A stretch of 64,000 nucleotides of DNA. Origin: a virus. Lineage: Duplodnaviria; Caudoviricetes. Position numbers and translations under genes: made by a program. Positions 1 to 60,353 of this stretch are shown one piece after another (position 1 is the stretch's first letter; each line of letters starts with the position of its first letter). Location of the stretch: positions 7,341-71,340 of IMG/VR virus record IMGVR_UViG_3300020045_009568; one strand, 5' to 3'. The notes beneath the pieces were generated by a model. The model saw only the letters and a program-made list of their open reading frames with translations, was not told the origin of the DNA and made no database searches.

Positions 1-1082
1 GGGTTTATTTTTTCGGTAATCTCTGCCACCCTTGCGCTGATTGCTTCGGGTATTCCACCAGGTCCGGCCAGGATGCTAAACTCATCGGTGCATTCAAACT
101 TTACAAGAGATCCGAGATATTCAGGAACTTCTTTATCGCTGATATTGTCCAGATTATAGCCAGTTTCAGCAGAGCAAAACTTTGCGCCGGTAAAAGTGGC
201 AATATCTTTCAGCACATCACGGGTGCCACGAATACCCAACGAAAGGGAAACAGCGCAAACTTCCAGCCCCTTTGGAATATTTGCGTTAAGAGTGCCCAGC
301 GCTTCGCCTGCAATATCTGTACAGAAAATAATCAGCGGGAGTTTTGCTTCGTGGGCATAATCCAAAAACTTCATCATATCCCCGTTTTTGGTGATTGCTT
401 TATCTGTTACAAAAACCAACGGCGCAGCATAAGCGCAACCGATAGTATTAGGAATGTTGGCGAAGTACTGGCTGGCATAACCCATATCTAAGCGCATGCC
501 GGCAACAGTTTCCAAATAGGTTTGTTTTTGCGTTTCACGAACACTGATTGCCACACCCGGACCAACCTTTTCATAAGCCTCTGCGATCATGCCGCCGATA
601 AATGTATCTCCATTGGCAGAAGTGGTTGCCAGCTGCGAAATCTTTTTAATATCCGGCTTACCATCCACCACCAGCGGAACAGCTATTTTTTTTATCTCTT
701 CAACACATAAAGCCAACTCTTCAACCAATTGCTTTTTAAGATCAACAATGTTTTGCCCTGACTTCATGCGCCTGTTCACCTCATTGATCAGGTTGTAAAG
801 CAGCACAGTTGAAGTTGTAGTACCATCTCCAGCGTCTTTTACCGTCTTGTTGGCCGCTTCCCGGAAGATTTTAATTGCTGCATTGATAAACTGATCATCG
901 GTGCACTCAATTTCATTTGCCACTGTCACACCATCCTTTGTGTACCGGCCACGATCCAGCAAGTTTGATATTATAACTGTCTTACCCTTTGGGCCCATGG
1001 TACATGCTACTGGCTTGTAAAGCATTTCTGCACCAGCTAACATTTTTTCCCGGGCTTCGTCGCCAAAAATTAATTTTTTCAT
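1..1082 (-). CDS. groEL: Phage GroEL-like chaperonin, 5' part (runs off the window)
   Basis: Manual translation from ATG at 1082: MKKLIFGDEAREKMLAGAEMLYKPVACTMGPKGKTVII...TKDGVTVANEI...DAGDGTTTSTVL. Has the GPKG, KDGVTVA and GDGTTT chaperonin motifs; open to position 1; start overlaps the groES stop (ATGA). Confidence 0.93.
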   Translation of the reverse strand, partial: MKKLIFGDEAREKMLAGAEMLYKPVACTMGPKGKTVIISNLLDRGRYTKDGVTVANEIECTDDQFINAAIKIFREAANKTVKDAGDGTTTSTVLLYNLINEVNRRMKSGQNIVDLKKQLVEELALCVEEIKKIAVPLVVDGKPDIKKISQLATTSANGDTFIGGMIAEAYEKVGPGVAISVRETQKQTYLETVAGMRLDMGYASQYFANIPNTIGCAYAAPLVFVTDKAITKNGDMMKFLDYAHEAKLPLIIFCTDIAGEALGTLNANIPKGLEVCAVSLSLGIRGTRDVLKDIATFTGAKFCSAETGYNLDNISDKEVPEYLGSLVKFECTDEFSILAGPGGIPEAISARVAEITEKIN

Positions 1083-1333
1083 AGTACGCAGATCAATTGT
1101 TTTTCTTCAAAAAATAAACCATCAACACCCTCATGATGAAATGGGTTGCCCTGGCCTTTCTCATACAACACTGTTGCTCCCGGCTTCAATGCATCGGCGC
1201 AGGTGGTGCCCACAAATAAAACCTTGCCTTTTAACAAGCTGGAAACTGGTATTTTAATATTTGTTTGGCTGGACTGAGCCTCATTAATTGGCTCTACATA
1301 TACTTTTGAAAAGAGGGGTTGCAGGGGATTCAT
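1079..1333 (-). CDS. groES: GroES-like co-chaperonin
   Basis: MNPLQPLFSKVYVEP...KGKVLFVG...LKPGATVLY...FFEEKQLICVL follows the Cpn10 pattern; directly upstream of and coupled to groEL. ATG at 1333 preferred over TTG at 1351. Confidence 0.8.
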   Translation of the reverse strand: MNPLQPLFSKVYVEPINEAQSSQTNIKIPVSSLLKGKVLFVGTTCADALKPGATVLYEKGQGNPFHHEGVDGLFFEEKQLICVL

Positions 1334-1359: not shown

Positions 1360-1537
1360 TTTTACAAAAAATATTTGTGCGGACAGGGGACCGGGACCGT
1401 TATTTTAGCGAAGATCACCATAGCCCAGCAGTGGTAATTTCTCTTTTACTTTTGTGGTTTTATTGTCGTTCTTTTTCATTAGCGCAAAGCAAATTTTAAG
1501 AGGGTTTTTAAGCTAATCTGCTGCATTGAAACCTGTC

Positions 1538-1566
1538 GTCGCTCATAACTAACTTTTATGTTAAAC
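1538..1566 (+). other. dif/Xer-like site (E1 left)
   Basis: gtcgctcataa ctaactt ttatgttaaac versus E. coli dif ggtgcgcataa tgtata ttatgttaaat (8/11 and 10/11 arm matches, 7-bp spacer). Confidence 0.55.
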
Positions 1567-1688
1567 ACGGCGCACGGCCTACGTTTCATCGCTTAAGAGT
1601 AAAATGTATTTTTCTTTTTTTACCCTCGCTACATGCAATAGATTATGTAGGAGATTTTAGCGTAAATTGCAAATAACTAAAACAATCA

Positions 1689-1937
1689 ATGATGAAGTTC
1701 AATATTGGGCATAGCCTTAATCAAAACAAAGAAGAGTGGAATTTATTTAATGACTTTTTAGAAACTCTTTCAAGTGAATATGCGGATGAATTTAAAAAGG
1801 AAATGTACAGCAATGAAAGATTTATGGCGGTTGGCATAAGCGGGAAACCAGCAGACATAACATACGCATTCAATCCGAGCGTCCCGGATGAAATTCAACG
1901 TAAGATTGTAAGTAAACTAAAGGAGATTTTCCCTTAA
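1689..1937 (+). CDS. Small hypothetical cargo protein in E1 (82 aa)
   Basis: Intact ORF behind an A-rich leader and a gattttagcg-taaattgc motif shared with E2; opposite strand to the flanking phage genes. Confidence 0.7.
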   Translation: MMKFNIGHSLNQNKEEWNLFNDFLETLSSEYADEFKKEMYSNERFMAVGISGKPADITYAFNPSVPDEIQRKIVSKLKEIFP

Positions 1938-2096
1938 CTCAAGGGCATGTTTGAATGAATCTGTAGATTCAATAATTGAAATGAAATTTTCCTTGTCGTA
2001 AATAACTCCAACTCCATTTATATCAATCGTTACTTTATTTTCGGTAACGTCAATTTGTAGTTTTTTTTCGGAGACAATTTCTTTTTCGCTTGACAT
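1917..2096 (-). CDS. Possible second small cargo ORF in E1 (59 aa, MSSEKEIVSEKK...)
   Basis: Internal ATG of track ORF 1917..2381; protein-like composition; convergent with 1689..1937. Confidence 0.4.
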   Translation of the reverse strand: MSSEKEIVSEKKLQIDVTENKVTIDINGVGVIYDKENFISIIESTDSFKHALELRENLL

Positions 2097-2314
2097 GGGA
2101 TTTTTGTACTTTTTTTTATCATTGCGCAAAAACAAACCGTTCCGGTTTAAAGAGAGCCTCCGGCGCTTCAAAAAAGAAAAATACATTTCCCTCTTTCGCT
2201 CCGCCAACTGCACGGCGAAAAGTTTGAAAAAAAATATAACTTTTCGCTGCCACGCTTCTCCTTGCCCTACCCCTCCCACGTCACTTTGTTCGCCAACCCT
2301 GTTTTTCGGCGTGC

Positions 2315-2343
2315 CGCCAACATAATATTGAGTTATGATCAAC
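2315..2343 (-). other. dif/Xer-like site (E1 right, inverted)
   Basis: Reverse complement reads gttgatcataa ctcaata ttatgttggcg (cataa-N7-ttatgtt core). Confidence 0.45.
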
Positions 2344-2504
2344 GGACAGGTTATTCTTTTGTGGGTGGCTTTACAAGCCACGTGGGCAGCAGATTACTGC
2401 GATTATTTTTTCTTTTTTTGGTTGAATTTTGTTGTTAAAAATAATCGCAGGGCTTAAAAACCCTCTTAAAATTTGCTTTGCGCTAATGAAAAAGAACGAC
2501 CACG

Positions 2505-2523
2505 AAGTTATGTATTGTAACTT
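2505..2523. promoter_or_regulatory. AAGTTA-N7-TAACTT palindrome, copy 2
   Basis: aagtta tgtattg taactt between the E1 right IR and the integrase stop. Confidence 0.6.
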
Positions 2524-2540
2524 ACCAACCAAATATTATT

Positions 2541-4100
2541 TCAACCAGCCAGCGCAGCCGCAAAATCCTCCAACAGTTGTCCGTCAGTTAGGATGCGGAT
2601 ACCATCCTCAAATAAAGCGTCTTTTATGGACGCTTTATTTATTTCCAGCAAACCTAATTCTTTTAAAGTCAATGCTTTATCTGCAAAAAGTGGGTGTATT
2701 CCGGCAGTTGTCCAAATTCCATCAGAATAGTGACCATACCCGGACAAAACAACTTTTAAAAACAGTTGCTTGCGTATCAGGTCAAGTTCGTGAAATGATT
2801 TTTTAAGGGTGCCCAGCTTTGTTAAAACCTCATCCAGCTTGTAGTTCAGCGCCGTGGTATCTTTCGTTGCGTTCGCCAATTGTTCCTCCAAACCCGTTTC
2901 CTCCGCCCGTAGCTCATTCATTATTTTACTGTACACTAAAACATCAATATCAGGGTTTAAAAGGTACCTGCTTTGCGTGGTGGCAATCTTTGCCTTCACC
3001 TTGTCCATTTGCATCTTTAGCCGCATGATAACGCCACCTTTGTCCTTGCTGTGCTTTTCAATGGATTGGTTCAGGGCTTCCCGGATAGCCTGAATTGATT
3101 TTTCAGGTACCGCCAGCACATCCAGCATTTTATCCATGGATGCATGCACTTTGGCAGCGGAGAAGTTTTTACGGTGGGTATCACATTTGTAATACCAGTA
3201 AAACCGTGAGTAACCTTTGGACCGGCCAGCAGTCATTTTTCTGCCACACTCCGGGCAGATCATCCAGCCACGCAGATAAACATCCTCTGCAGGCTGGTGG
3301 CTGTTATTTTTGCCGTTTAATTTAACCTGAGCGGTGTAGTACTCTGATTTTGTAATAATGGGCTTATGGATTGCTTCTACTTCGTATCCGGGCTTTCCTT
3401 TATAAGCTGGCACCTGAATAATACCGGCATAGATACTCCGCTCCAAAATATCCCGGATTGCGGACCGGTTAGTTTGCGTAAATTCCGGAATCTTACGCTT
3501 TATTTCAAACATGGGTACGCCCTGGTTGAAGAGCTTGAAAATCTTTTTTACAATTTCTGCTTTGTGGGGGTCAATAACGATCATGGAGCTTTTACCCTGC
3601 CGGTTGTTGAGGTAGCCATACGGCGCTTTCCCAGTAAACCGTCCGCTGGCCAATGTCCGATACATGCCATCTTTGGTACGTTCCTGTATCCTGTTCCTTT
3701 CGTTGTTGGAGAATAGTAAATTTATGGTCCGCATCAGCTGCACGCCCAAATCCTTGTTGTTCTGGCCGACCGGATCTGTAACACTCAGGACCTTTACGCC
3801 CAGTTTATCTTCAATCTCATTGAGCTTCACCAGTGCATCCAGCAGGGTAGCCCGGGAAAACCGATCAATGTGGTAGATAACCAGCGCAAAAACCTTTTTA
3901 TTAGTTTTGATGTATTGCTCCAGCGCCTTCCATTCTGGCCGGTCAAAGGTAAAACCGCTCTTGCCGTTCTCTACAAATGCTTTTGCAATAGTTAATCCAT
4001 TGGCTTTGCAGTAGGCTTTCATTTGCTCATCCTGCATATCCAGGCTATTCGACTGGTCGGTTGTTGAAAGTCTGCTATAGGTAACTACCAGGCTGCTCAT
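2541..4100 (-). CDS. Large serine recombinase (phage integrase)
   Basis: N-terminal resolvase motif YSRLST and DRFSR, recombinase domain GRFTGKAPYGY, zinc ribbon CPECG...YYKC, coiled coil; 519 aa. Confidence 0.95.
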   Translation of the reverse strand: MSSLVVTYSRLSTTDQSNSLDMQDEQMKAYCKANGLTIAKAFVENGKSGFTFDRPEWKALEQYIKTNKKVFALVIYHIDRFSRATLLDALVKLNEIEDKLGVKVLSVTDPVGQNNKDLGVQLMRTINLLFSNNERNRIQERTKDGMYRTLASGRFTGKAPYGYLNNRQGKSSMIVIDPHKAEIVKKIFKLFNQGVPMFEIKRKIPEFTQTNRSAIRDILERSIYAGIIQVPAYKGKPGYEVEAIHKPIITKSEYYTAQVKLNGKNNSHQPAEDVYLRGWMICPECGRKMTAGRSKGYSRFYWYYKCDTHRKNFSAAKVHASMDKMLDVLAVPEKSIQAIREALNQSIEKHSKDKGGVIMRLKMQMDKVKAKIATTQSRYLLNPDIDVLVYSKIMNELRAEETGLEEQLANATKDTTALNYKLDEVLTKLGTLKKSFHELDLIRKQLFLKVVLSGYGHYSDGIWTTAGIHPLFADKALTLKELGLLEINKASIKDALFEDGIRILTDGQLLEDFAAALAG

Positions 4101-6976: not shown

Positions 6977-7050
6977 TGGCAAGTAGCTCAGTTGGCTAGA
7001 GCGTTTGACGGTTAATCAGAAGGTCGCTGGTTCAAGCCCAGCCTTGCTAA
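6977..7050 (+). tRNA. tRNA-Asn(GTT) with G33; CCA not encoded
   Basis: Cloverleaf: acceptor TGGCAAG/CTTGCTA, D stem GCTC/GAGC, anticodon stem TTTGA/TCAGA with loop CGGTTAA, T arm GCTGG-TTCAAGC-CCAGC. Confidence 0.85.
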
Positions 7051-7285: not shown

Positions 7286-7347
7286 GATAGTTGCCTGACG
7301 GCTATTAGACGCTTATTCGGACGGGGGTTCGATACCTCCCACCTCCA
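7286..7347 (+). ncRNA. ssrA: tmRNA acceptor piece (standard 3' end) of a permuted ssrA
   Basis: ttcggac GGGGG TTCGATA CCTCC CACCTCC A: GGAC motif, T arm, 3' acceptor strand and discriminator A. The 5' boundary is approximate. Confidence 0.8.
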
Positions 7348-7505
7348 CAAGATTACACCTTGCCCAGTTTTGGTCCGCTGGCTTTTGCTGATTGAACCAT
7401 TAAGCGAAAGTTTAAAAAGATGAGAAGGTGTAATCTACTTTATTTGGCAGTTGCCATTTGAAAGCTAACCAGCCGCTTTAGTGCTGTTCAGCCTTCGGGC
7501 TGTTT

Positions 7506-7650
7506 GGGGGTGAATGGTTTTGACGGTAAGTAGTAGGTAGCAATAGACTATCAGTAACAAAACAAAAGGCAAAGTAATCGCCTTTGGTAAGCCGCAGCTT
7601 AGAGCAGCCGCCTAACCAACGAAACTGGCCCCCGCCGTAAAAGGGGGCTA
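7506..7650 (+). ncRNA. ssrA: tmRNA coding piece (standard 5' end plus tag ORF) of a permuted ssrA
   Basis: GGGGGTG AATGGTTTTGAC pairs with CACCTCC giving G3.U70; tag frame 7568-7615 GKVIAFGKPQLRAAA*; hairpin ggccccc..gggggct follows. The 3' boundary is approximate. Confidence 0.8.
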
Positions 7651-33744: not shown

Positions 33745-34242
33745 TTATACCCACTGTGCGTACAAAACTGTATTTGCTATAATCGGATTGATCGCTGCAC
33801 CTACTGCATACGCTGTTCCTGAACCATCAGCTGCTGTATTCCATTCGCTGAATGTTTTGGTTGATTTTACAAGCGTTCCAGCTGCTACGGTTACAGGAGT
33901 AGACCACTTATCGTAAGGGCTACTTGCATCTGTTGGAGCAGAGCCACCTGTATTGGTGTTGCCATTGTACGTCAATGTGTACGTTCCCATTGATTCATAC
34001 AACTGTGGTAGTTGCTCTGCCCTGCAGGAGTTTACCGGCTGCCCGTCTTTTTTGATCAGGTAGTCAGTATCGTGCAACACTGCCACTTCACCATTTGCCA
34101 ACCGGATATTTACTACCCTGTCATTGACCGTGGATTCCGATTTAATAAGGCTTACACGAGCCCCCTCGAAAATGCCACTGGTTGTATTACCATCGGTAAA
34201 TTGAATTACCTCATACTGCTGAATTTTTGCATACTTTGCCAT
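33745..34242 (-). CDS. Fusion of a small phage domain and an InlB B-repeat/Flg_new domain
   Basis: C-terminal YTLTYNGNTNTGG...FSEWNTAADGSGTAY...TVLYAQW is a Listeria-Bacteroides repeat; the N-terminus resembles the EAVQF..GDYIIK..CKPDIF..TYE phage family. Confidence 0.75.
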   Translation of the reverse strand: MAKYAKIQQYEVIQFTDGNTTSGIFEGARVSLIKSESTVNDRVVNIRLANGEVAVLHDTDYLIKKDGQPVNSCRAEQLPQLYESMGTYTLTYNGNTNTGGSAPTDASSPYDKWSTPVTVAAGTLVKSTKTFSEWNTAADGSGTAYAVGAAINPIIANTVLYAQWV

Positions 34243-34250
34243 GATGTTCT

Positions 34251-34269
34251 AAGTTATATTATATAACTT
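34251..34269. promoter_or_regulatory. AAGTTA-N7-TAACTT palindrome, copy 3
   Basis: aagtta tattata taactt directly downstream of minus-strand TACTTTTG with an upstream TTTG. Confidence 0.7.
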
Positions 34270-34454
34270 CAAAAGTAGCACTTGTTTTGAATAATCAAAA
34301 AAATATTTGTGCGGACATGGGACCGGCAACAATCGAGTAGCAGCTATAGCCAGGCAGCGGTAATAGTCATTGATCTTTTGGGAAGTGTGTCAGTTCTTTT
34401 TATCTATGCGTTTGAATTTCTTTTGGCTTAAAAATAGGCTGCAAGGAATTGCCC

Positions 34455-34483
34455 TTTACCTATAACTAATTTTTATGTTAAGC
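34455..34483 (+). other. dif/Xer-like site (E2 left)
   Basis: tttacctataa ctaattt ttatgttaagc (9/11 match to the XerD arm). Confidence 0.5.
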
Positions 34484-34656
34484 AGGCGCACACGCCTTCC
34501 CGTTATGAGTGAAGTGTATTGTATTTTTTTTCTCCCGCCCTGCTGCGAGTATTAGTAGCCCGGATAGATTTTAGCGAGTAAATTTTGGAGTAATTAAAAA
34601 AAGTGTAGTTTTGAAATAGAAAAACGGAGCTGCGAACTCCGTTCCTCTTCTTAATC

Positions 34657-34758
34657 TTAAAGCAGTAATAGCTTAAGGATTTCGACAATAGACTTGACAA
34701 TCAGCATAATGCTGACGACTTTTCCCAGTTTGTCGCTGGGCAATTTACCAGTTCTCAT
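34657..34758 (-). CDS. 33-aa hydrophobic peptide, type I toxin-like
   Basis: MRTGKLPSDKLGKVVSIMLIVKSIVEILKLLLL*, by manual translation. Confidence 0.4.
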   Translation of the reverse strand: MRTGKLPSDKLGKVVSIMLIVKSIVEILKLLLL

Positions 34759-34765
34759 AAGGATG

Positions 34766-34798
34766 AAAGTTGACTGTTTTGACAGTCAACTTTTTTTT
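34766..34798 (+). terminator. Strong intrinsic terminator inside E2
   Basis: aaagttgactgt-tttg-acagtcaacttt perfect 12-bp stem plus T run. Confidence 0.75.
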
Positions 34799-34969
34799 CG
34801 AGCAAGCGTCCATGTTTGCAGGGATACTTCTTTCGTTCCAAATGATTCGCAGATTGAACCTGTCAGGTTATCCATACAAATATATCACATTACATCATGC
34901 AAATCCTTTGCTGTCCGCACTGGAGTATTAACCCATTGAGTAGATTGTGTTATTAGATTAATTTATAAA

Positions 34970-35470
34970 TTGTGTGGAATTAAAACAACTGATATGGAAA
35001 AGGAAATGACAATTTCTGACAAGCTGCATTCAGATGCAGCCATGACAAGAGGGATTATTATAAATGAAGTTGCTCACCTTGAAAAAATGATTGACGCATT
35101 TTTGTCAATGTACTTCGTGCAGGTCGGAAAGCAAACTACATTTTACTTAGTTTTTTTATCTCAAATGCAGCTTACCAAGAAAGTCAACATTTTTAAAGAC
35201 ACCGTTAGCTCTTACAAGAATGATTTTGTAAAAAACAATCCAACCTATAGCGTTGATCTTGGCAAAATAATAGAGCAAAGGAATTTGCTTGCACATGAAA
35301 TAATAGACCTTTCAAAGGGAGGGTTTTTGAAATATTCCAAAGGGTATGTGCAGTTTGACAATTTCAAAAAGAAAAGAAAGGTAACCGCATTCGGCAAGAC
35401 AGATGTAAAAAACCTTATAGCATTAATTCAGAAATATACTATAGCTGTTACTGAATTACTTAGCAAGTAA
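34970..35470 (+). CDS. HEPN-motif protein (MtlR-like HEPN, predicted RNase), cargo of E2
   Basis: Helical protein with RNLLAH (Rx4H) after LEKMI...F...KKVNIF; opposite strand to the late operon. Confidence 0.65.
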   Translation: MCGIKTTDMEKEMTISDKLHSDAAMTRGIIINEVAHLEKMIDAFLSMYFVQVGKQTTFYLVFLSQMQLTKKVNIFKDTVSSYKNDFVKNNPTYSVDLGKIIEQRNLLAHEIIDLSKGGFLKYSKGYVQFDNFKKKRKVTAFGKTDVKNLIALIQKYTIAVTELLSK

Positions 35471-35673
35471 AGTTTGGGCACCGGAATCCCCTTTCAGATT
35501 GGTACGTTAGCTACCGTACTTCATCGTCTTAAAGGGAACTCCATCGAGTTTATAATAATTTGTGTAGAAGGAAACGCCTTGCGGCGTAAAGAGGGCTCCG
35601 CATCTCAAAAAAAATACAATACACTTCCCTCATAGCCTTGCTGCCCCTCCCACATCGCTTCGCTAGCTAACCT

Positions 35674-35703
35674 GAATAACATAATATTGAAGTTATAGGC
35701 GAA
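35674..35703 (-). other. dif/Xer-like site (E2 right, inverted)
   Basis: Reverse complement reads ttcgcctataa cttcaata ttatgttattc (8-bp spacer). Confidence 0.45.
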
Positions 35704-35850
35704 AGCGCAATATTCTTTTTGTGGTTGTTTTTTCAAAACAAGTAGGCGGCCTATTTTAAGATTTTCTTATTACATCCTGTTTAGGGAAGCTGTATAAGAA
35801 AATCTTAAGCCAAAAGAAATTCAAACGCATAGATAAAAAGAACTGACACA

Positions 35851-35869
35851 AAGTTATGTAATGTGACCA
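35851..35869. promoter_or_regulatory. Degenerate AAGTTA-N7-TAACTT palindrome, copy 4
   Basis: aagtta tgtaatg tgacca, at the same position relative to E2 as copy 2 is to E1. Confidence 0.4.
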
Positions 35870-36007
35870 GACTTCCAAATAAATTTATTACTTTTGAAAA
35901 ACAAGCAAGTGAAGGAAATTCAATTTTAAATATAAGGTAATTTTTGCTTTTTTAAATGTTGATTTCTTTAGTGGCAAAAATCGCAAGCCCGACCACACTG
36001 CATATCA

Positions 36008-38338: not shown

Positions 38339-40372
38339 TTATGCGGTTTTATGTTTTTTGAAGCCGTAATCTGCCAGCGGCCTAAGTTTGCCCTCTGTGC
38401 TTTTTTCCACCTTTAATGCATCGGCCACAAGCGTCCATCCTGCAGCCATCGTAAGGTCAAACTTCTGTGTTTTTTTTACATTGAATCCCTTCCAGTCTTC
38501 AATTAGTGCCGGGAAGTGAACTTTTTTTATGTTATCTTCTATATACGCCTCTGTCACGGCAAGGAGCGTATATTTATTGTCTTCTGTACTTGGAATGCCG
38601 TATTGTTTATATCCTGGTATTTTAACCAAAAAAGGCTCTAGCCCTTGTGATATAAACCATCTTTCAATTTCAGATTTGTTACTTTCAAATATCAGCTTGC
38701 ACCCGAAATACCAGCATAGTTTTACTATATCTTCAAAAAGAAGATATAGTGTTTTTGGTCTGCCATGATACTTGCAAACAAACGATTTATTAAACATTTC
38801 GTTCTCGCCAAAAGGGTTGTTTTTTTTATACACCATTGCGGCGGCCATACTTCGACGAAAATCTTCGGTTTCATCTGTTCCGTATGGATCAAGCCCAATC
38901 AAAAACTTAACATTATTCATTGGCTTAAACCCAGCTGGCGTCTTAGATACATTATTGATGTCTTCCGGGTTATCAAACTGAAAGGCTTTTGGGATTTCAA
39001 ATCTTCCGTTGGAATCTTTCACCCAAAGCGCCCTGCCAAACTTTACCCCATTTTCCCAAATTAAATTTCCCTTTTCAATACAGCCTGGCATTCCATCTAT
39101 TTCCCATATCCGCTGATTTAGTAACCCCAAATTAAAATGGCAATTTTCTGTCGAAAACATAAAAGCCTCTGCTTCACTTAGCGGCTCTTTTCTCATTTCC
39201 GCATACAAAGTGTCAGGGTCGTCTACAAAGCTTTGGCGCTCTAAATGTATGGCGGCCCTATTCTGTTCCACAAGCGGCTCTCCATATATGTCGTGTTCGC
39301 CAGCCCTGTCTGCGGGGATAAAGAACCTGCATAACCCGGTCTTTGTGGCGCCAGTTTGAGTAGGATTATATTGATCACTATCTTGCCATAGCTTTTTAAA
39401 ATTAAATTTCAACCCCATCAACTCTACCGTTGACGTCACCCACATTTTGCCAATTATCTTCCTGTCGATATCAACACAGCATTTCTTTACAATTGAATGC
39501 CGGGCTATTACATCCGTTTCAACCTTGCCGCTTTCGTCAAGTATTAAGAATCTCACTCTTTCCCCATCATAGGCTTTCGGTTTTGCATTCCTGTAGTCTA
39601 TTTTTGATTTAAGTTCAGAGCCTCTTAAATTGGCTTGCGCCTTTTTTCCTTTAATGCTTGGTTTGTAAAATCGTAATGACCCTTTTGGCGTAGACCCTGC
39701 AGATGTATCCCAAACCGGGATGAAAAATGAAGGCAGGTATTTGAATTGATTGACGATATTCTTTTCAAAAAAACTTTCAGCGCTGTCCTCATCCATGCTT
39801 TGAATACCACAAAGAGCCCCCTTTGTTCTGGATGCTATTTCATAAGCGATAGCCCCAGCTCTTAAGCTTTTGCCATCCCTTCTTTTTCTTACTTCAATTC
39901 CGCCAATGCATTTAGGATTTTCGGAAATATGTTGGTAGAAATAAAAGTACTCCAGGTCCACCACCCTATATTTAAGTGGCTCCGTTTCAGACTTCCTGAA
40001 ATAGTTTAAGAAGAAGTAATACATTCCGGTCAAGTAAACAGGCTTGCCATTTATCCAAACCCAAACGCCATAAAGCCTCCTATGCCACTCCCTGCTTCTA
40101 ATAATATTCAATTCGGGGTCTGTATAGGTAGCAGCCAACCCTTGCTTTATCTGGTCATCCTGTCGTTCTTTTTCAATCAAAACTCTTTCCTCAAAATCCT
40201 CTGGTATCGGCTGAATCTCCCAGTATTGATCTTCCTTTTTGGTACTTCTTTTTATAACGTCCACCGGTAAAAGCTCAGCAGTTTCACTATGCGACCCCAT
40301 CCCATAAGGGGGCACCCAGCAGGCAAGCCCCTGAATTTCAATTTTAGTTCCATTGGGTATTTCGGCGTACAT
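38339..40372 (-). CDS. terL: Terminase large subunit
   Basis: Walker A RKRRDGKS, Walker B LILDESGK, nuclease motifs IGLDPY and FDLTMA. Confidence 0.9.
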   Translation of the reverse strand: MYAEIPNGTKIEIQGLACWVPPYGMGSHSETAELLPVDVIKRSTKKEDQYWEIQPIPEDFEERVLIEKERQDDQIKQGLAATYTDPELNIIRSREWHRRLYGVWVWINGKPVYLTGMYYFFLNYFRKSETEPLKYRVVDLEYFYFYQHISENPKCIGGIEVRKRRDGKSLRAGAIAYEIASRTKGALCGIQSMDEDSAESFFEKNIVNQFKYLPSFFIPVWDTSAGSTPKGSLRFYKPSIKGKKAQANLRGSELKSKIDYRNAKPKAYDGERVRFLILDESGKVETDVIARHSIVKKCCVDIDRKIIGKMWVTSTVELMGLKFNFKKLWQDSDQYNPTQTGATKTGLCRFFIPADRAGEHDIYGEPLVEQNRAAIHLERQSFVDDPDTLYAEMRKEPLSEAEAFMFSTENCHFNLGLLNQRIWEIDGMPGCIEKGNLIWENGVKFGRALWVKDSNGRFEIPKAFQFDNPEDINNVSKTPAGFKPMNNVKFLIGLDPYGTDETEDFRRSMAAAMVYKKNNPFGENEMFNKSFVCKYHGRPKTLYLLFEDIVKLCWYFGCKLIFESNKSEIERWFISQGLEPFLVKIPGYKQYGIPSTEDNKYTLLAVTEAYIEDNIKKVHFPALIEDWKGFNVKKTQKFDLTMAAGWTLVADALKVEKSTEGKLRPLADYGFKKHKTA

Positions 40373-59364: not shown

Positions 59365-59985
59365 TTAATATTTCGCTATCAATCTTCTTGCAGGGATAAT
59401 GTAATGAAGCCCACCTAACATTTGATACTGCTGAACAAACTTTGTTTCAACCGGTATCACATCACCAACCTCACAACTCACTTCTATTTCCGGCATCGCT
59501 TTGATAGTGGCCCTGTCTTGAAACGTCACATTATCACTCAGCGACAATCCGGATTTTGAAAAAAGTTCCTTTTCATTTTTTATTGGCTCCAGTATCACAT
59601 ACTGGTTTGGAACAATTATTTTGCCTTCTCTCACCACGCAAAAAACTTCGCTATAATCAACCTTCCAGTACTCTTCACCGTTATAGCAAACAAGGTTTTT
59701 ATACGTCGGTGTTTCGCCTTCCTCATATCTTTCATACTGGTAAATAACGCCGTAAGAAAACCATATCTCATCACCTTCACGGATGATCATGTTTGTTTTT
59801 TCACGCCAGTATTCACCACCCAGCTTATCCGGAACAGAATGAACAACCCCTTTTAAGGTGGCGTATTCTTCCGGACTGAAAGTTGTATCAATGAGCAGCC
59901 CCTTTTCAGTATCCTGGTATTTTTTTTCTATTGTTACCAGTATGGTGTTAAGCGGGCATTTTAGTTTAGCTATCCATTCCGTCAT
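59365..59985 (-). CDS. Tandem two-domain GroES-like protein
   Basis: Two Cpn10-like halves: PLNTILVT..GLLI..KGVVHSVP..EGDEIWF..SEVFCVV and PNQYVILEP..SKSGLSL..RATIKA..VGDVI..RRLIAK. Confidence 0.7.
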   Translation of the reverse strand: MTEWIAKLKCPLNTILVTIEKKYQDTEKGLLIDTTFSPEEYATLKGVVHSVPDKLGGEYWREKTNMIIREGDEIWFSYGVIYQYERYEEGETPTYKNLVCYNGEEYWKVDYSEVFCVVREGKIIVPNQYVILEPIKNEKELFSKSGLSLSDNVTFQDRATIKAMPEIEVSCEVGDVIPVETKFVQQYQMLGGLHYIIPARRLIAKY

Positions 59986-60004
59986 TTCTCATAAGAAAGG
60001 TTTG

Positions 60005-60023
60005 AAGTCATATTATCTAACTT
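60005..60023. promoter_or_regulatory. AAGTTA-N7-TAACTT-like palindrome, copy 7 (extended tttgaag..cttcaaa)
   Basis: aagtca tattatc taactt at the head of the late arm, downstream of minus-strand TACTTTTG; divergent TAACTTTG near 60097. Confidence 0.7.
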
Positions 60024-60107
60024 CAAAAGTAATTAATGTTTTGTTCAGTAACGTAAAAACATAAGGAATTATTTTTTAAAAAAGGTTAGATAGTATAACT
60101 TTGATTC

Positions 60108-60353
60108 ATGAACCCCCTTGCAAACCATCTGATCATTTCCCCTCATGCTGTAAACAATAAATCCCGCTCAGGGATTAGTCTGGTAATGGAGGAAAGGCCT
60201 TTTGTGGGGAAAGCCACGATAGTTGCAGTAAGTCAGGATATAAAACAAAGCCCGTTAAAAGAAGGCGATACCATTGCCTATCTGGCGAACCAGGAAAAAT
60301 GGCAGGACGGTGTTTGCCTGCTGAATATCGATCACGCCCAAGCAAAACTTTAA
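60108..60353 (+). CDS. GroES-like protein
   Basis: MNPLANHLIISP..KSRSGISL..ATIVAVS..LKEGDTIAY Cpn10 pattern. Confidence 0.7.
   Translation: MNPLANHLIISPHAVNNKSRSGISLVMEERPFVGKATIVAVSQDIKQSPLKEGDTIAYLANQEKWQDGVCLLNIDHAQAKL

Follow-up and report, generated by a model that had tools for sequence, protein, structure and literature searches.

Two fold-back elements in a tailed-phage genome

The window analysed here, a 64,000-nt stretch (positions 7,341 to 71,340) of the 71.3-kb IMG/VR virus record IMGVR_UViG_3300020045_009568 (Duplodnaviria; Caudoviricetes), carries two elements, E1 and E2, each of which contains nested inverted repeats that could fold back across a cargo of accessory genes. In E2, which the initial annotation placed at 34251-35869, a repeat finder confirmed the nested arms described there: an outer pair of 46 nt with 100% complementarity (34386-34431 and 35805-35850) and an inner pair of 28 nt with one mismatch and 96% complementarity (34504-34531 and 35607-35634). 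The sister element E1 (1366-2540, plus strand), beside a serine integrase gene, has the same order of parts with different arms and cargo; its outer arms (1465-1513 and 2452-2500) are 49 nt long and 100% complementary, and its inner arms (1595-1620 and 2170-2195) are 26 nt long and 92% complementary. Global alignment of E1 with E2 recovered, in the same order, every sequence landmark previously listed as common to them, and it bore out the proposal that the arms have diverged between the elements while each arm has kept its own partner: the outer arms are only ~60% alike by eye, yet each pair is perfect. As annotated, both elements are intergenic, lie between minus-strand genes and have their longest open reading frame (ORF) on the plus strand. 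A 29-mer at the left end (1366-1394 in E1 and 34298-34326 in E2) is 97% identical; the sequence ATATTTGTGCGGACA occurs exactly twice in the window, where 0.16 occurrences are expected. On the right side, the likeness between the two elements extends to ~35890.

Read along the plus strand, E2 begins with a left-end box, AAAAAATATTTGTGCGGACATGGGACCGG (34298-34326), in which a promoter-like AATATTTG that may act as a promoter is followed by a GGACC motif. The 5' arm of the outer stem (34386-34431) and a left flank (34431-34467) lead into a left core resembling a dif site (34462-34481), composed of ATAAC (34462-34466), the centre TAATTT (34467-34472) and an arm of XerD type, TTATGTTAA (34473-34481), which is adjoined by a GGCGCAC box (34485-34491) and followed by the 5' arm of the inner stem (34504-34531). 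On the far side of the cargo, the order is reversed: the 3' arm of the inner stem (35607-35634) precedes an inverted right core (35678-35696) composed of AACATAA (35678-35684), the centre TATTGAA (35685-35691) and GTTAT (35692-35696). Beyond it are a small local hairpin in the right flank (35725-35741, from the predicted DNA fold), a larger local hairpin with a 15-bp perfect stem (35756-35808; stem 35756-35770/35794-35808) that corresponds to the inserted hairpin noticed earlier, the 3' arm of the outer stem (35805-35850), and a right-end block shared with E1 (35851-35890, minus strand; AAGTTATGTAWTGT ... CCAAATA..TTATT). On the minus strand, this block reads as a degenerate promoter and half-palindrome facing into the element.

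Inverted dif-like cores and the predicted fold

The conserved core of the elements is an inverted pair: ATAAC-N6-TTATGTTAA(AT) followed by GCGCAC on the left, and AACATAA-N6/7-GTTAT on the right. The core arms pair across the cargo, and the centre stays largely mismatched. In relatives of E2 the left arm is TTATGTTAAAT, an 11-mer found in left cores, which we take to be the XerD arm of Escherichia coli dif. The same 11-mer occurs 21 times in the paper of Carnoy & Roten on dif/Xer systems (PMC2731167). The GCGCAC box lies 3' of the XerD-type arm in nearly all members of the family described below, and also 3' of the canonical dif-like site on the chromosome.

When E2 was folded with DNA parameters after removal of the cargo, the prediction was a single rod with the arm duplexes on either side of an unpaired centre. 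From outside to inside, the rod consists of a 44-bp outer stem; helices of 12, 5, 5 and 4 bp formed by the left and right flanks; a 9-bp helix (CCTATAACT/AGTTATAGG) that holds the XerC-type arm; the unpaired centre; an 8-bp helix of the XerD-type arm (TTATGTTA/TAACATAA), in which the arm of the left core pairs with 35677-35684; an internal loop; and an inner stem of 6 and 21 bp that closes off the cargo. The two local hairpins project from the 3' side of the rod.

A family of cassettes in phages, bacterial genomes and metagenomes

The suggestion that E1 and E2 belong to a family of structured elements is upheld by the recovery of cores in 16 further IMG/VR loci, 44 bacterial-genome loci and 37 metagenome loci. 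The viral loci were obtained by pattern scans whose matches were then scored with profiles of the left and right cores, and those of bacteria by scanning one genome per species and keeping the loci with true cores; about half of the first loose matches to the left core among viruses, and most matches to the right core, were chance occurrences inside genes and were discarded by eye or by profile scoring. The metagenome loci are mostly of the row type described below, and a metagenome scan with the left end specific to E1 and E2 gave no match. Titled records with true members derive almost entirely from Chitinophagaceae, Chitinophagales and unclassified Bacteroidota (Sediminibacterium, Ferruginibacter, Flavisolibacter and others), one member contig being binned as Synechococcus, probably wrongly; all other members come from IMG/VR virus contigs or from metagenome contigs without a title. 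Small complete elements with differing cargo are present at the viral loci L003/L004, L010, L013, L014, L016/L022, L020 and L075. Cassettes are ~0.6-2.5 kb in size and carry one or a few accessory genes, none of them for replication or for the virion, and neither the E1 cargo nor the E2 cargo encodes a recombinase domain. We conclude with high confidence that E2 is a phage-borne member of a family of dif-type, recombinase-less cassettes.

Chromosomal rows at a dif-like site

In Chitinophagaceae chromosomes, the cassettes stand in one-way rows, in which a right core, 100-200 nt, a left core, 0.4-2.6 kb of cargo and another right core follow each other repeatedly. The rows start at a canonical 28-bp (11-6-11) dif-like site that has a centre of 6 nt, namely ACTTCTTATAA-TTAATA-TTATGTTAAAT or a close variant. 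In one Ferruginibacter genome, all 10 of 10 left cores belong to one ~11-kb row of 11 cassettes (C8:135,565-146,463), which begins with ...TTATAA-TTAATA-TTATGTTAA, again with a 6-nt centre. In each of three Sediminibacterium genomes, the motif of XerD-type arm plus GCGCAC is confined to a single locus, where the order is canonical dif-like site, cassette, hairpin, cassette-type left core and chromosome. Chromosomal relatives are flanked by direct repeats of the XerD-type arm with GCGCAC, while E2 itself lies in a phage and not at dif. The nearest tyrosine recombinase gene is more than 70 kb away from the Ferruginibacter row, and for the Sediminibacterium locus none lies closer than ~200 kb; three such enzymes of Xer size are encoded elsewhere in the genome of each host.

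It is plausible that the dif-like site is near the replication terminus. GC skew changes from positive to negative at ~1.60-1.65 Mb of a 5.26-Mb chromosome in which the site is at 1.506 Mb (left versus right, p = 0.016); the first 12-kb samples were too noisy, and a denser sample placed the sign change ~0.1 Mb from the site. Among the ORFs that flank the row, reading by eye finds helicase-like and gyrase/topoisomerase-like products. At three loci (L103, at 2414-2462; L133; L177), an inverted AACATAA(T/C) lies directly upstream of the canonical dif-like site, so that the chromosomal anchor looks like two overlapping inverted dif-type sites with a common TTATAA arm. Within the Ferruginibacter row (L182 and L190; JBAOHS010000008.1, 135.5-146.5 kb), cargo genes for a 161-amino-acid HEPN-like protein and a 146-amino-acid Fic/DOC-like protein are each present four or five times, which represents either tandem amplification or an artefact of long-read assembly.

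The intervals between neighbouring cassettes in these rows are structured. The flank 3' of the right core of one cassette pairs best with the flank 5' of the left core of the next, so that a local hairpin arises from the two inverted cores and the 150-200 nt that separate them, as has been described for the attachment region of the CTX phage. The conserved parts of this junction hairpin are an RTTCTKTTT stretch, a small hairpin at the place equivalent to 35725-35741 of E2, and a long perfect hairpin, often TTGCGATTTT...AAAATCGCAA, of which the E2 hairpin at 35756-35808 is the counterpart.

Covariation and pairing at the DNA level

Compensatory divergence of the arms, which had been inferred from E1 and E2 alone, holds across the family. 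For 23 of the 32 unique cassettes, the best partner of the 5' inner arm is the cassette's own 3' arm, and the mean pairing score is 32 with the own partner, compared to 17 with foreign partners. The inner stems are cassette-specific, and by eye the A-rich strand comes first in some subfamilies and the T-rich strand first in others, amounting to a full strand swap of the helix. Inversion of the cassette body as the source of these two types was considered and rejected in favour of a strand swap of an A/T-rich stem by compensatory change. Alignment of 37 junction hairpins yields a consensus of three helices: an invariant one of the XerD-type arm, one that comprises the XerC-type arm and its extension, and the apical hairpin; 96.2% of the cells in the alignment can pair, compared to 82.6% in shuffles and 35-48% when the partner strand is slid. 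There are 110 double changes where 25.8 are expected, a value reached by none of 500 shuffles, so that the absence of covariation envisaged as a possible outcome did not materialize. The equivalent of the left-flank helix of E2 that holds the XerC-type arm is among those that covary across the cassette family.

One-sided (wobble) changes account for only 4 cells in the same 37 hairpins, and the 1129 pairs in the apical hairpins of 47 unique junctions, mostly 17-39 bp long and highly varied in sequence, comprise 1112 Watson-Crick pairs, 7 A-C pairs, 10 others and not a single G-T pair. Helices selected in RNA are normally rich in G-U pairs. The near-absence of wobble pairs therefore favours arm-to-arm conversion at the DNA level; of the two causes originally offered for the complementarity, selection for pairing or arm-to-arm conversion, it is the latter to which the data point. 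Perfect palindromes that diverge this fast are best explained as DNA hairpins in which one arm is corrected against the other, either through template switching or when the folded strand is repaired.

The same data argue against a purely RNA role, and we consider it very unlikely that the elements are large structured RNAs, i.e. that transcription of the plus strand from the left-end box yields an RNA which adopts the rod fold, the stems serving as RNase III sites or as parts of a functional non-coding RNA whose loop tolerates ORFs. Strong covariation would be expected of such an RNA, a promoter-like box and GGACC do precede the phage copies, and by eye some local loops resemble GNRA or UUCG tetraloops. 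However, apart from the pattern of substitution, which is unlike that of selected RNA helices, the chromosomal junctions have no promoter box, the conserved unpaired motifs resemble recombinase sites and are identical to the chromosomal dif-like site, and the only plausible ORF of several members is antisense to the transcript. E1 and E2 matched no covariance model of Rfam 15 at the gathering thresholds, and up to E = 5 only chance-level matches appeared.

Covariation also bears on the idea of an invertible switch, in which a host Xer or other recombinase flips the cargo in double-stranded DNA and so changes the strand that is read from the inward promoter-like boxes. Inverted cores do bracket the cargo; each end of E1 has a promoter-like AATATTTG box directed inward, a feature that is less clear in E2; cargo ORFs are on either strand across the family; and dif modules of Acinetobacter, likewise bounded by inverted sites, are reported to be extensively shuffled (PMC13141974). 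Yet inversion requires no complementarity beyond the cores, whereas the flanks and inner arms covary, and the directional stacks at the chromosomal dif-like site fit insertion rather than switching. The 58 cassette bodies, a small sample, include no pair with the same cargo in opposite orientation. A switch of this kind appears quite unlikely.

Permuted phage copies and exchange with host chromosomes

In the phage copies, the flanks that form a local hairpin in the chromosomal rows pair instead across the cargo, the hairpin being open at or near its tip and the phage genome replacing its loop. The phage copies are therefore circularly permuted relative to the chromosomal units. Subfamilies differ in how the open end is built: the outer stem of the phage copy in the L075 subfamily is the long-hairpin stem of its chromosomal relative L205, and in the L004/L013 subfamily the TTGCGA hairpin is retained and an extra 13-bp stem is added. 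Perfect added outer stems are 49 bp in E1, 46 bp in E2 and 38 bp in the metagenome contig L247. In most of the phage-borne members checked, GGACC is found 40-150 nt upstream of the left core. Phage and host are connected by L013, a genuine phage contig that encodes a polymerase, Erf and a tail spike and whose cassette backbone is 91-99% identical to that of a Sediminibacterium chromosomal cassette with a different cargo; judged by this identity, exchange between phage and chromosome is recent. The E2 cargo, too, has a homologue in a chromosomal row, described below.

A group of related IMG/VR contigs (L006, L009, L001, L002 and L017) possesses the left half only, comprising GGACC, flank and left core. 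Two of them, L006 and L009, are ~94% identical except for ~1.5-1.8 kb of non-homologous sequence from ~630 nt past the left core, and the stretch beyond the left core looks like a hotspot of gene replacement.

Decay and turnover of this kind in phages would be expected if the elements were inert passengers: a chromosomal cassette cut at two neighbouring hairpin tips and captured illegitimately, with arms that are a by-product of palindrome correction during replication, and doing nothing for the phage except to supply accessory genes. The permuted topology is indeed the expected product of breakage at two adjacent junction-hairpin tips. Against this explanation, a GGACC box and a further outer stem of 12-49 bp are common to copies in unrelated phages and absent from chromosomal junctions, and the left ends of E1 and E2 have remained 97% identical while the rest diverged. 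The shared phage-only features and the conserved left end suggest a phage form that is maintained and functional, and we consider an inert passenger unlikely.

Cargo

The cargo is variable, as the initial annotation had anticipated: nearly every cassette differs, and a cargo fixed among relatives was not found. Forty cargo ORFs taken from the family are mostly orphans, with Pfam matches only to Fic/DOC, RelE, DUF1828 and DUF2335, and a few match candidate defence families of PADLOC. The principal cargo gene of E2 (34994-35467, plus strand; possible TTG start at 34970) encodes a protein of 158 amino acids that has no Pfam match above threshold and for which a word-based protein search returned only the query. 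It is homologous to the 161-amino-acid cargo protein of the Ferruginibacter row (25% identity, E 1.5e-10), and a profile built from the two retrieved 898 representative clusters, revealing a large family of ~160-amino-acid HEPN-like proteins without a Pfam model, few of which match Pfam HEPN models, weakly and below threshold. Invariant residues in 38 homologues are R19, G20, E30, R96, N97, A100 and H101, the last four falling within an Rx4H motif (R96-N-L-L-A-H101). The AlphaFold model of the E2 protein (predicted local distance difference test score, pLDDT, 95.8) gave nothing significant when compared to the PDB by Foldseek; in an exhaustive structure alignment HEPN domains ranked at the top, with Z scores (9.3-7.5) that are modest for a helical bundle, in the order 2hsb (Z 9.3), AbiA (8oz7, Z 8.3), then sacsin, HEPN toxins, Csm6 and HepS. 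From the modelled structure and the conserved motif, the 158-amino-acid protein is a putative RNase of the HEPN fold.

E2 also contains an ORF for a hydrophobic peptide of 33 amino acids (34657-34758, minus strand) without a Pfam match, located between a terminator-like hairpin (34623-34643) and another hairpin that was recognized by eye and has a T-run (~34766-34798). The E1 cargo consists of an 82-amino-acid ORF and an ORF of ~59 amino acids, both without matches. On the strength of the encoded proteins, the E2 cargo is an accessory ('moron') load, putatively of the toxin/defence kind.

Comparison with known Xer-dependent elements and integrons

The cassettes resemble the CTX-type integrative mobile elements exploiting Xer (IMEX) of Vibrio cholerae (PMC4246890, PMC3442271), among which CTX has two inverted dif-like sites (PMC3091885). 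Both lack a recombinase of their own, both have an inverted dif-like pair that anneals within one strand with a mismatched centre, both stack in tandem at a chromosomal dif-like site, and in both the inverted sites are adjacent at one end of the unit; a forked hairpin like that of CTX is suggested here by the sequence, the predicted fold and the covarying flank helices. The cassettes differ in their size of ~0.6-2.5 kb, in carrying accessory genes without replication or virion genes, and in their Chitinophagaceae hosts. The hairpin of the cassettes has further conserved parts, namely GCGCAC, an inner stem specific to each cassette, and a long apical hairpin with perfect pairing, and the cassettes also sit, permuted, inside tailed double-stranded DNA phages.

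Integron cassettes with their attC sites, which are recombined by IntI with attI (PMC2727003, PMC4792948), offer a second comparison. As in integrons, small genes, mostly orphans or of toxin type, stand in rows of a single direction with an anchor site at one end, and the folded, covarying sites between them have two boxes and an unpaired spacer in an order analogous to that of attC; the boxes ATAAC/GTTAT resemble RYYYAAC/GTTRRRY, and the spectrum of cargo (orphans, Fic/DOC, RelE, defence candidates) is that of integron arrays. In contrast to integrons, the rows are anchored at a dif-like site and have no gene for an integron integrase in or close to them; the folded site measures ~150-200 nt and includes XerD-arm sequence, and extrahelical bases are not documented for it. 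The phage copies have their ORF within the fold-back, not outside it.

The plasmid-borne dif (pdif) modules of Acinetobacter are characterized by inverted sites of XerC/XerD type that alternate between C/D and D/C and by toxin-antitoxin and accessory cargo (PMC6449649, PMC13141974, PMC11705084). The left and right cores of E2 are similarly inverted and bracket its cargo. In pdif modules, to our knowledge, only the 28-bp sites are conserved, whereas in the present family conserved hairpins occupy alternate intervals and the flanks show covariation, which implies a folded strand. The location also differs, being chromosomes and phages instead of the Rep_3 plasmids of Acinetobacter. A further comparison is with the dif-flanked Microviridae proviruses of Bacteroidetes, which integrate at dif-like sites without a recombinase of their own, some having a second, inverted dif-like site as in CTX (Krupovic & Forterre 2011, PMC3091885). 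They share with the cassettes the phylum, the dif-like sites and the lack of a recombinase, but constitute entire viruses of single-stranded DNA and possess genes for Rep and capsid, which the cassettes do not have. A literature search returned no account of comparable cassettes from either Bacteroidota or tailed phages, and no paper on a phage-borne, permuted form with long perfect arms.

Proposed mechanism of movement

We regard it as probable, with some reserve, that E2 and E1 are phage-borne gene cassettes that lack a recombinase, have inverted dif-like sites within a covarying fold-back and are moved by Xer in their hosts. One strand would fold and anneal its two cores, made up of ATAAC, 6 nt and TTATGTTAA on the left and of AACATAA, 6-7 nt and GTTAT on the right, and the resulting duplex of XerC-type arm, largely mismatched centre and XerD-type arm would follow the design of the folded attachment site of CTX and come close to the R box, unpaired spacer and L box of an integron attC. 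Host XerC and XerD would insert cassettes successively and in one direction beside the canonical dif-like site, the movement probably proceeding through a single-stranded folded intermediate. The phage form would correspond to a junction hairpin opened at its tip, with arms that pair across the cargo and outer arms that have grown to 46-49 perfect bp; the perfect Watson-Crick arms would result from repeated formation of DNA hairpins and correction of arm against arm. With moderate confidence, movement by host XerC and XerD through a folded strand is the best-supported mechanism.

Several observations weigh against this explanation. The XerC-type arm is conserved only in its inner 4-5 bases, and the phage has no canonical dif-type site with a TTAATA centre. 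The position of the terminus derives from sparse sampling of GC skew, and in two complete chromosomes dnaA is only ~30% of the circle away from the site. Most of the phage copies checked, but none of the chromosomal junctions checked, have the promoter-like box and GGACC, which hints at an RNA-level or phage-specific role that is outside the model. No empty site was found in a close relative of this phage, its closest portal relatives being ~30% identical and without the element. Finally, because the phage copies are permuted, an Xer crossover at the left core alone cannot explain their entry into phages. A cassette may have been captured once two adjacent hairpin tips had broken; it may have entered by illegitimate recombination in an insertion-tolerant loop, only such products retaining the fold; or a hairpin-specific step of unspecified kind may have been involved.

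An extension of the proposed mechanism would make the phage rod a working stage of transfer, with cassettes that shuttle between phage and host dif-like site by way of a folded single strand handled by XerC and XerD, and that constitute a shared, integrase-free pool of defence and toxin genes. This extension is tentative, and we would call it possible rather than probable.

Genomic context of the elements

Besides the two elements, the phage genome encodes a large terminase (38339-40372), a GroES-like (Cpn10) protein (1079-1333, minus strand) that adjoins E1 on the left, and, on the other side of E1, a 519-amino-acid large serine recombinase with Resolvase, Recombinase and zinc-ribbon domains (2541-4100, minus strand). 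No tyrosine recombinase was found in the phage record. The phage integrase was considered as the enzyme that moves the cassettes and was rejected, being a large serine recombinase. A two-piece (permuted) transfer-messenger RNA gene (7286-7615; 58.6 bits, gathering score 47) and a transfer RNA gene (6977-7050) were identified with Rfam. Relatives (28-35% identity) of the 775-amino-acid protein encoded beside E2 are present at 17 loci, and cores were found at none of these.

The 19-bp palindrome AAGTTATAnnnTATAACTT has copies at 1341, 34251, 40963, 54422, 60005 and 60083, and a degenerate copy at 2505. The copies lie 0-10 nt before start codons, of minus-strand genes at five sites and of a plus-strand gene at 60083, and a TAnnTTTG-like box is directly upstream of those at 1341, 34251, 40963 and 60005. 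The copy AAGTTATATTATATAACTT (34251-34269, minus strand), which the initial annotation had taken for the left end of E2, is probably outside the cassette and the leader or operator of the phage late promoter for the gene at 33745-34242. Because copies recur before gene starts at several sites without any element, the palindrome is probably a phage promoter or leader motif and not an element end, and was set aside as an element end or target site; it is a candidate late promoter, operator or leader hairpin of the phage. Degenerate copies are present at the right ends of both E1 and E2. Within 59365-60353, the segment 60067-60135 is an inverted, 72% complementary copy of the start and promoter region of the GroES gene (1307-1375).

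Implications for gene exchange between phages and Bacteroidota

If confirmed, the cassette interpretation would account for two puzzling fold-back insertions of 1.2-1.6 kb between essential late genes of the phage. In the integron, the textbook means for bacteria to gather individual genes, a dedicated integrase is required. In the present family, the logic of the integron appears to run on the universal machinery of chromosome resolution, with cassettes that are also found inside tailed phages; the sharing of dif-type cassettes between phages and chromosomes suggests an integron-like system of gene swapping that reaches phages. Should the shuttle between phage rod and host site be real, the long, perfectly paired arms would be a record of repeated passage through a hairpin DNA intermediate. 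Upon confirmation, the family would provide a concrete system for testing how integron-type recombination may evolve from Xer/dif, a route for the exchange of accessory genes between phage and host without an element-encoded enzyme, and a signature by which gene stores in Bacteroidota may be searched for: the arm with GCGCAC, its inverted partner and a perfect hairpin.

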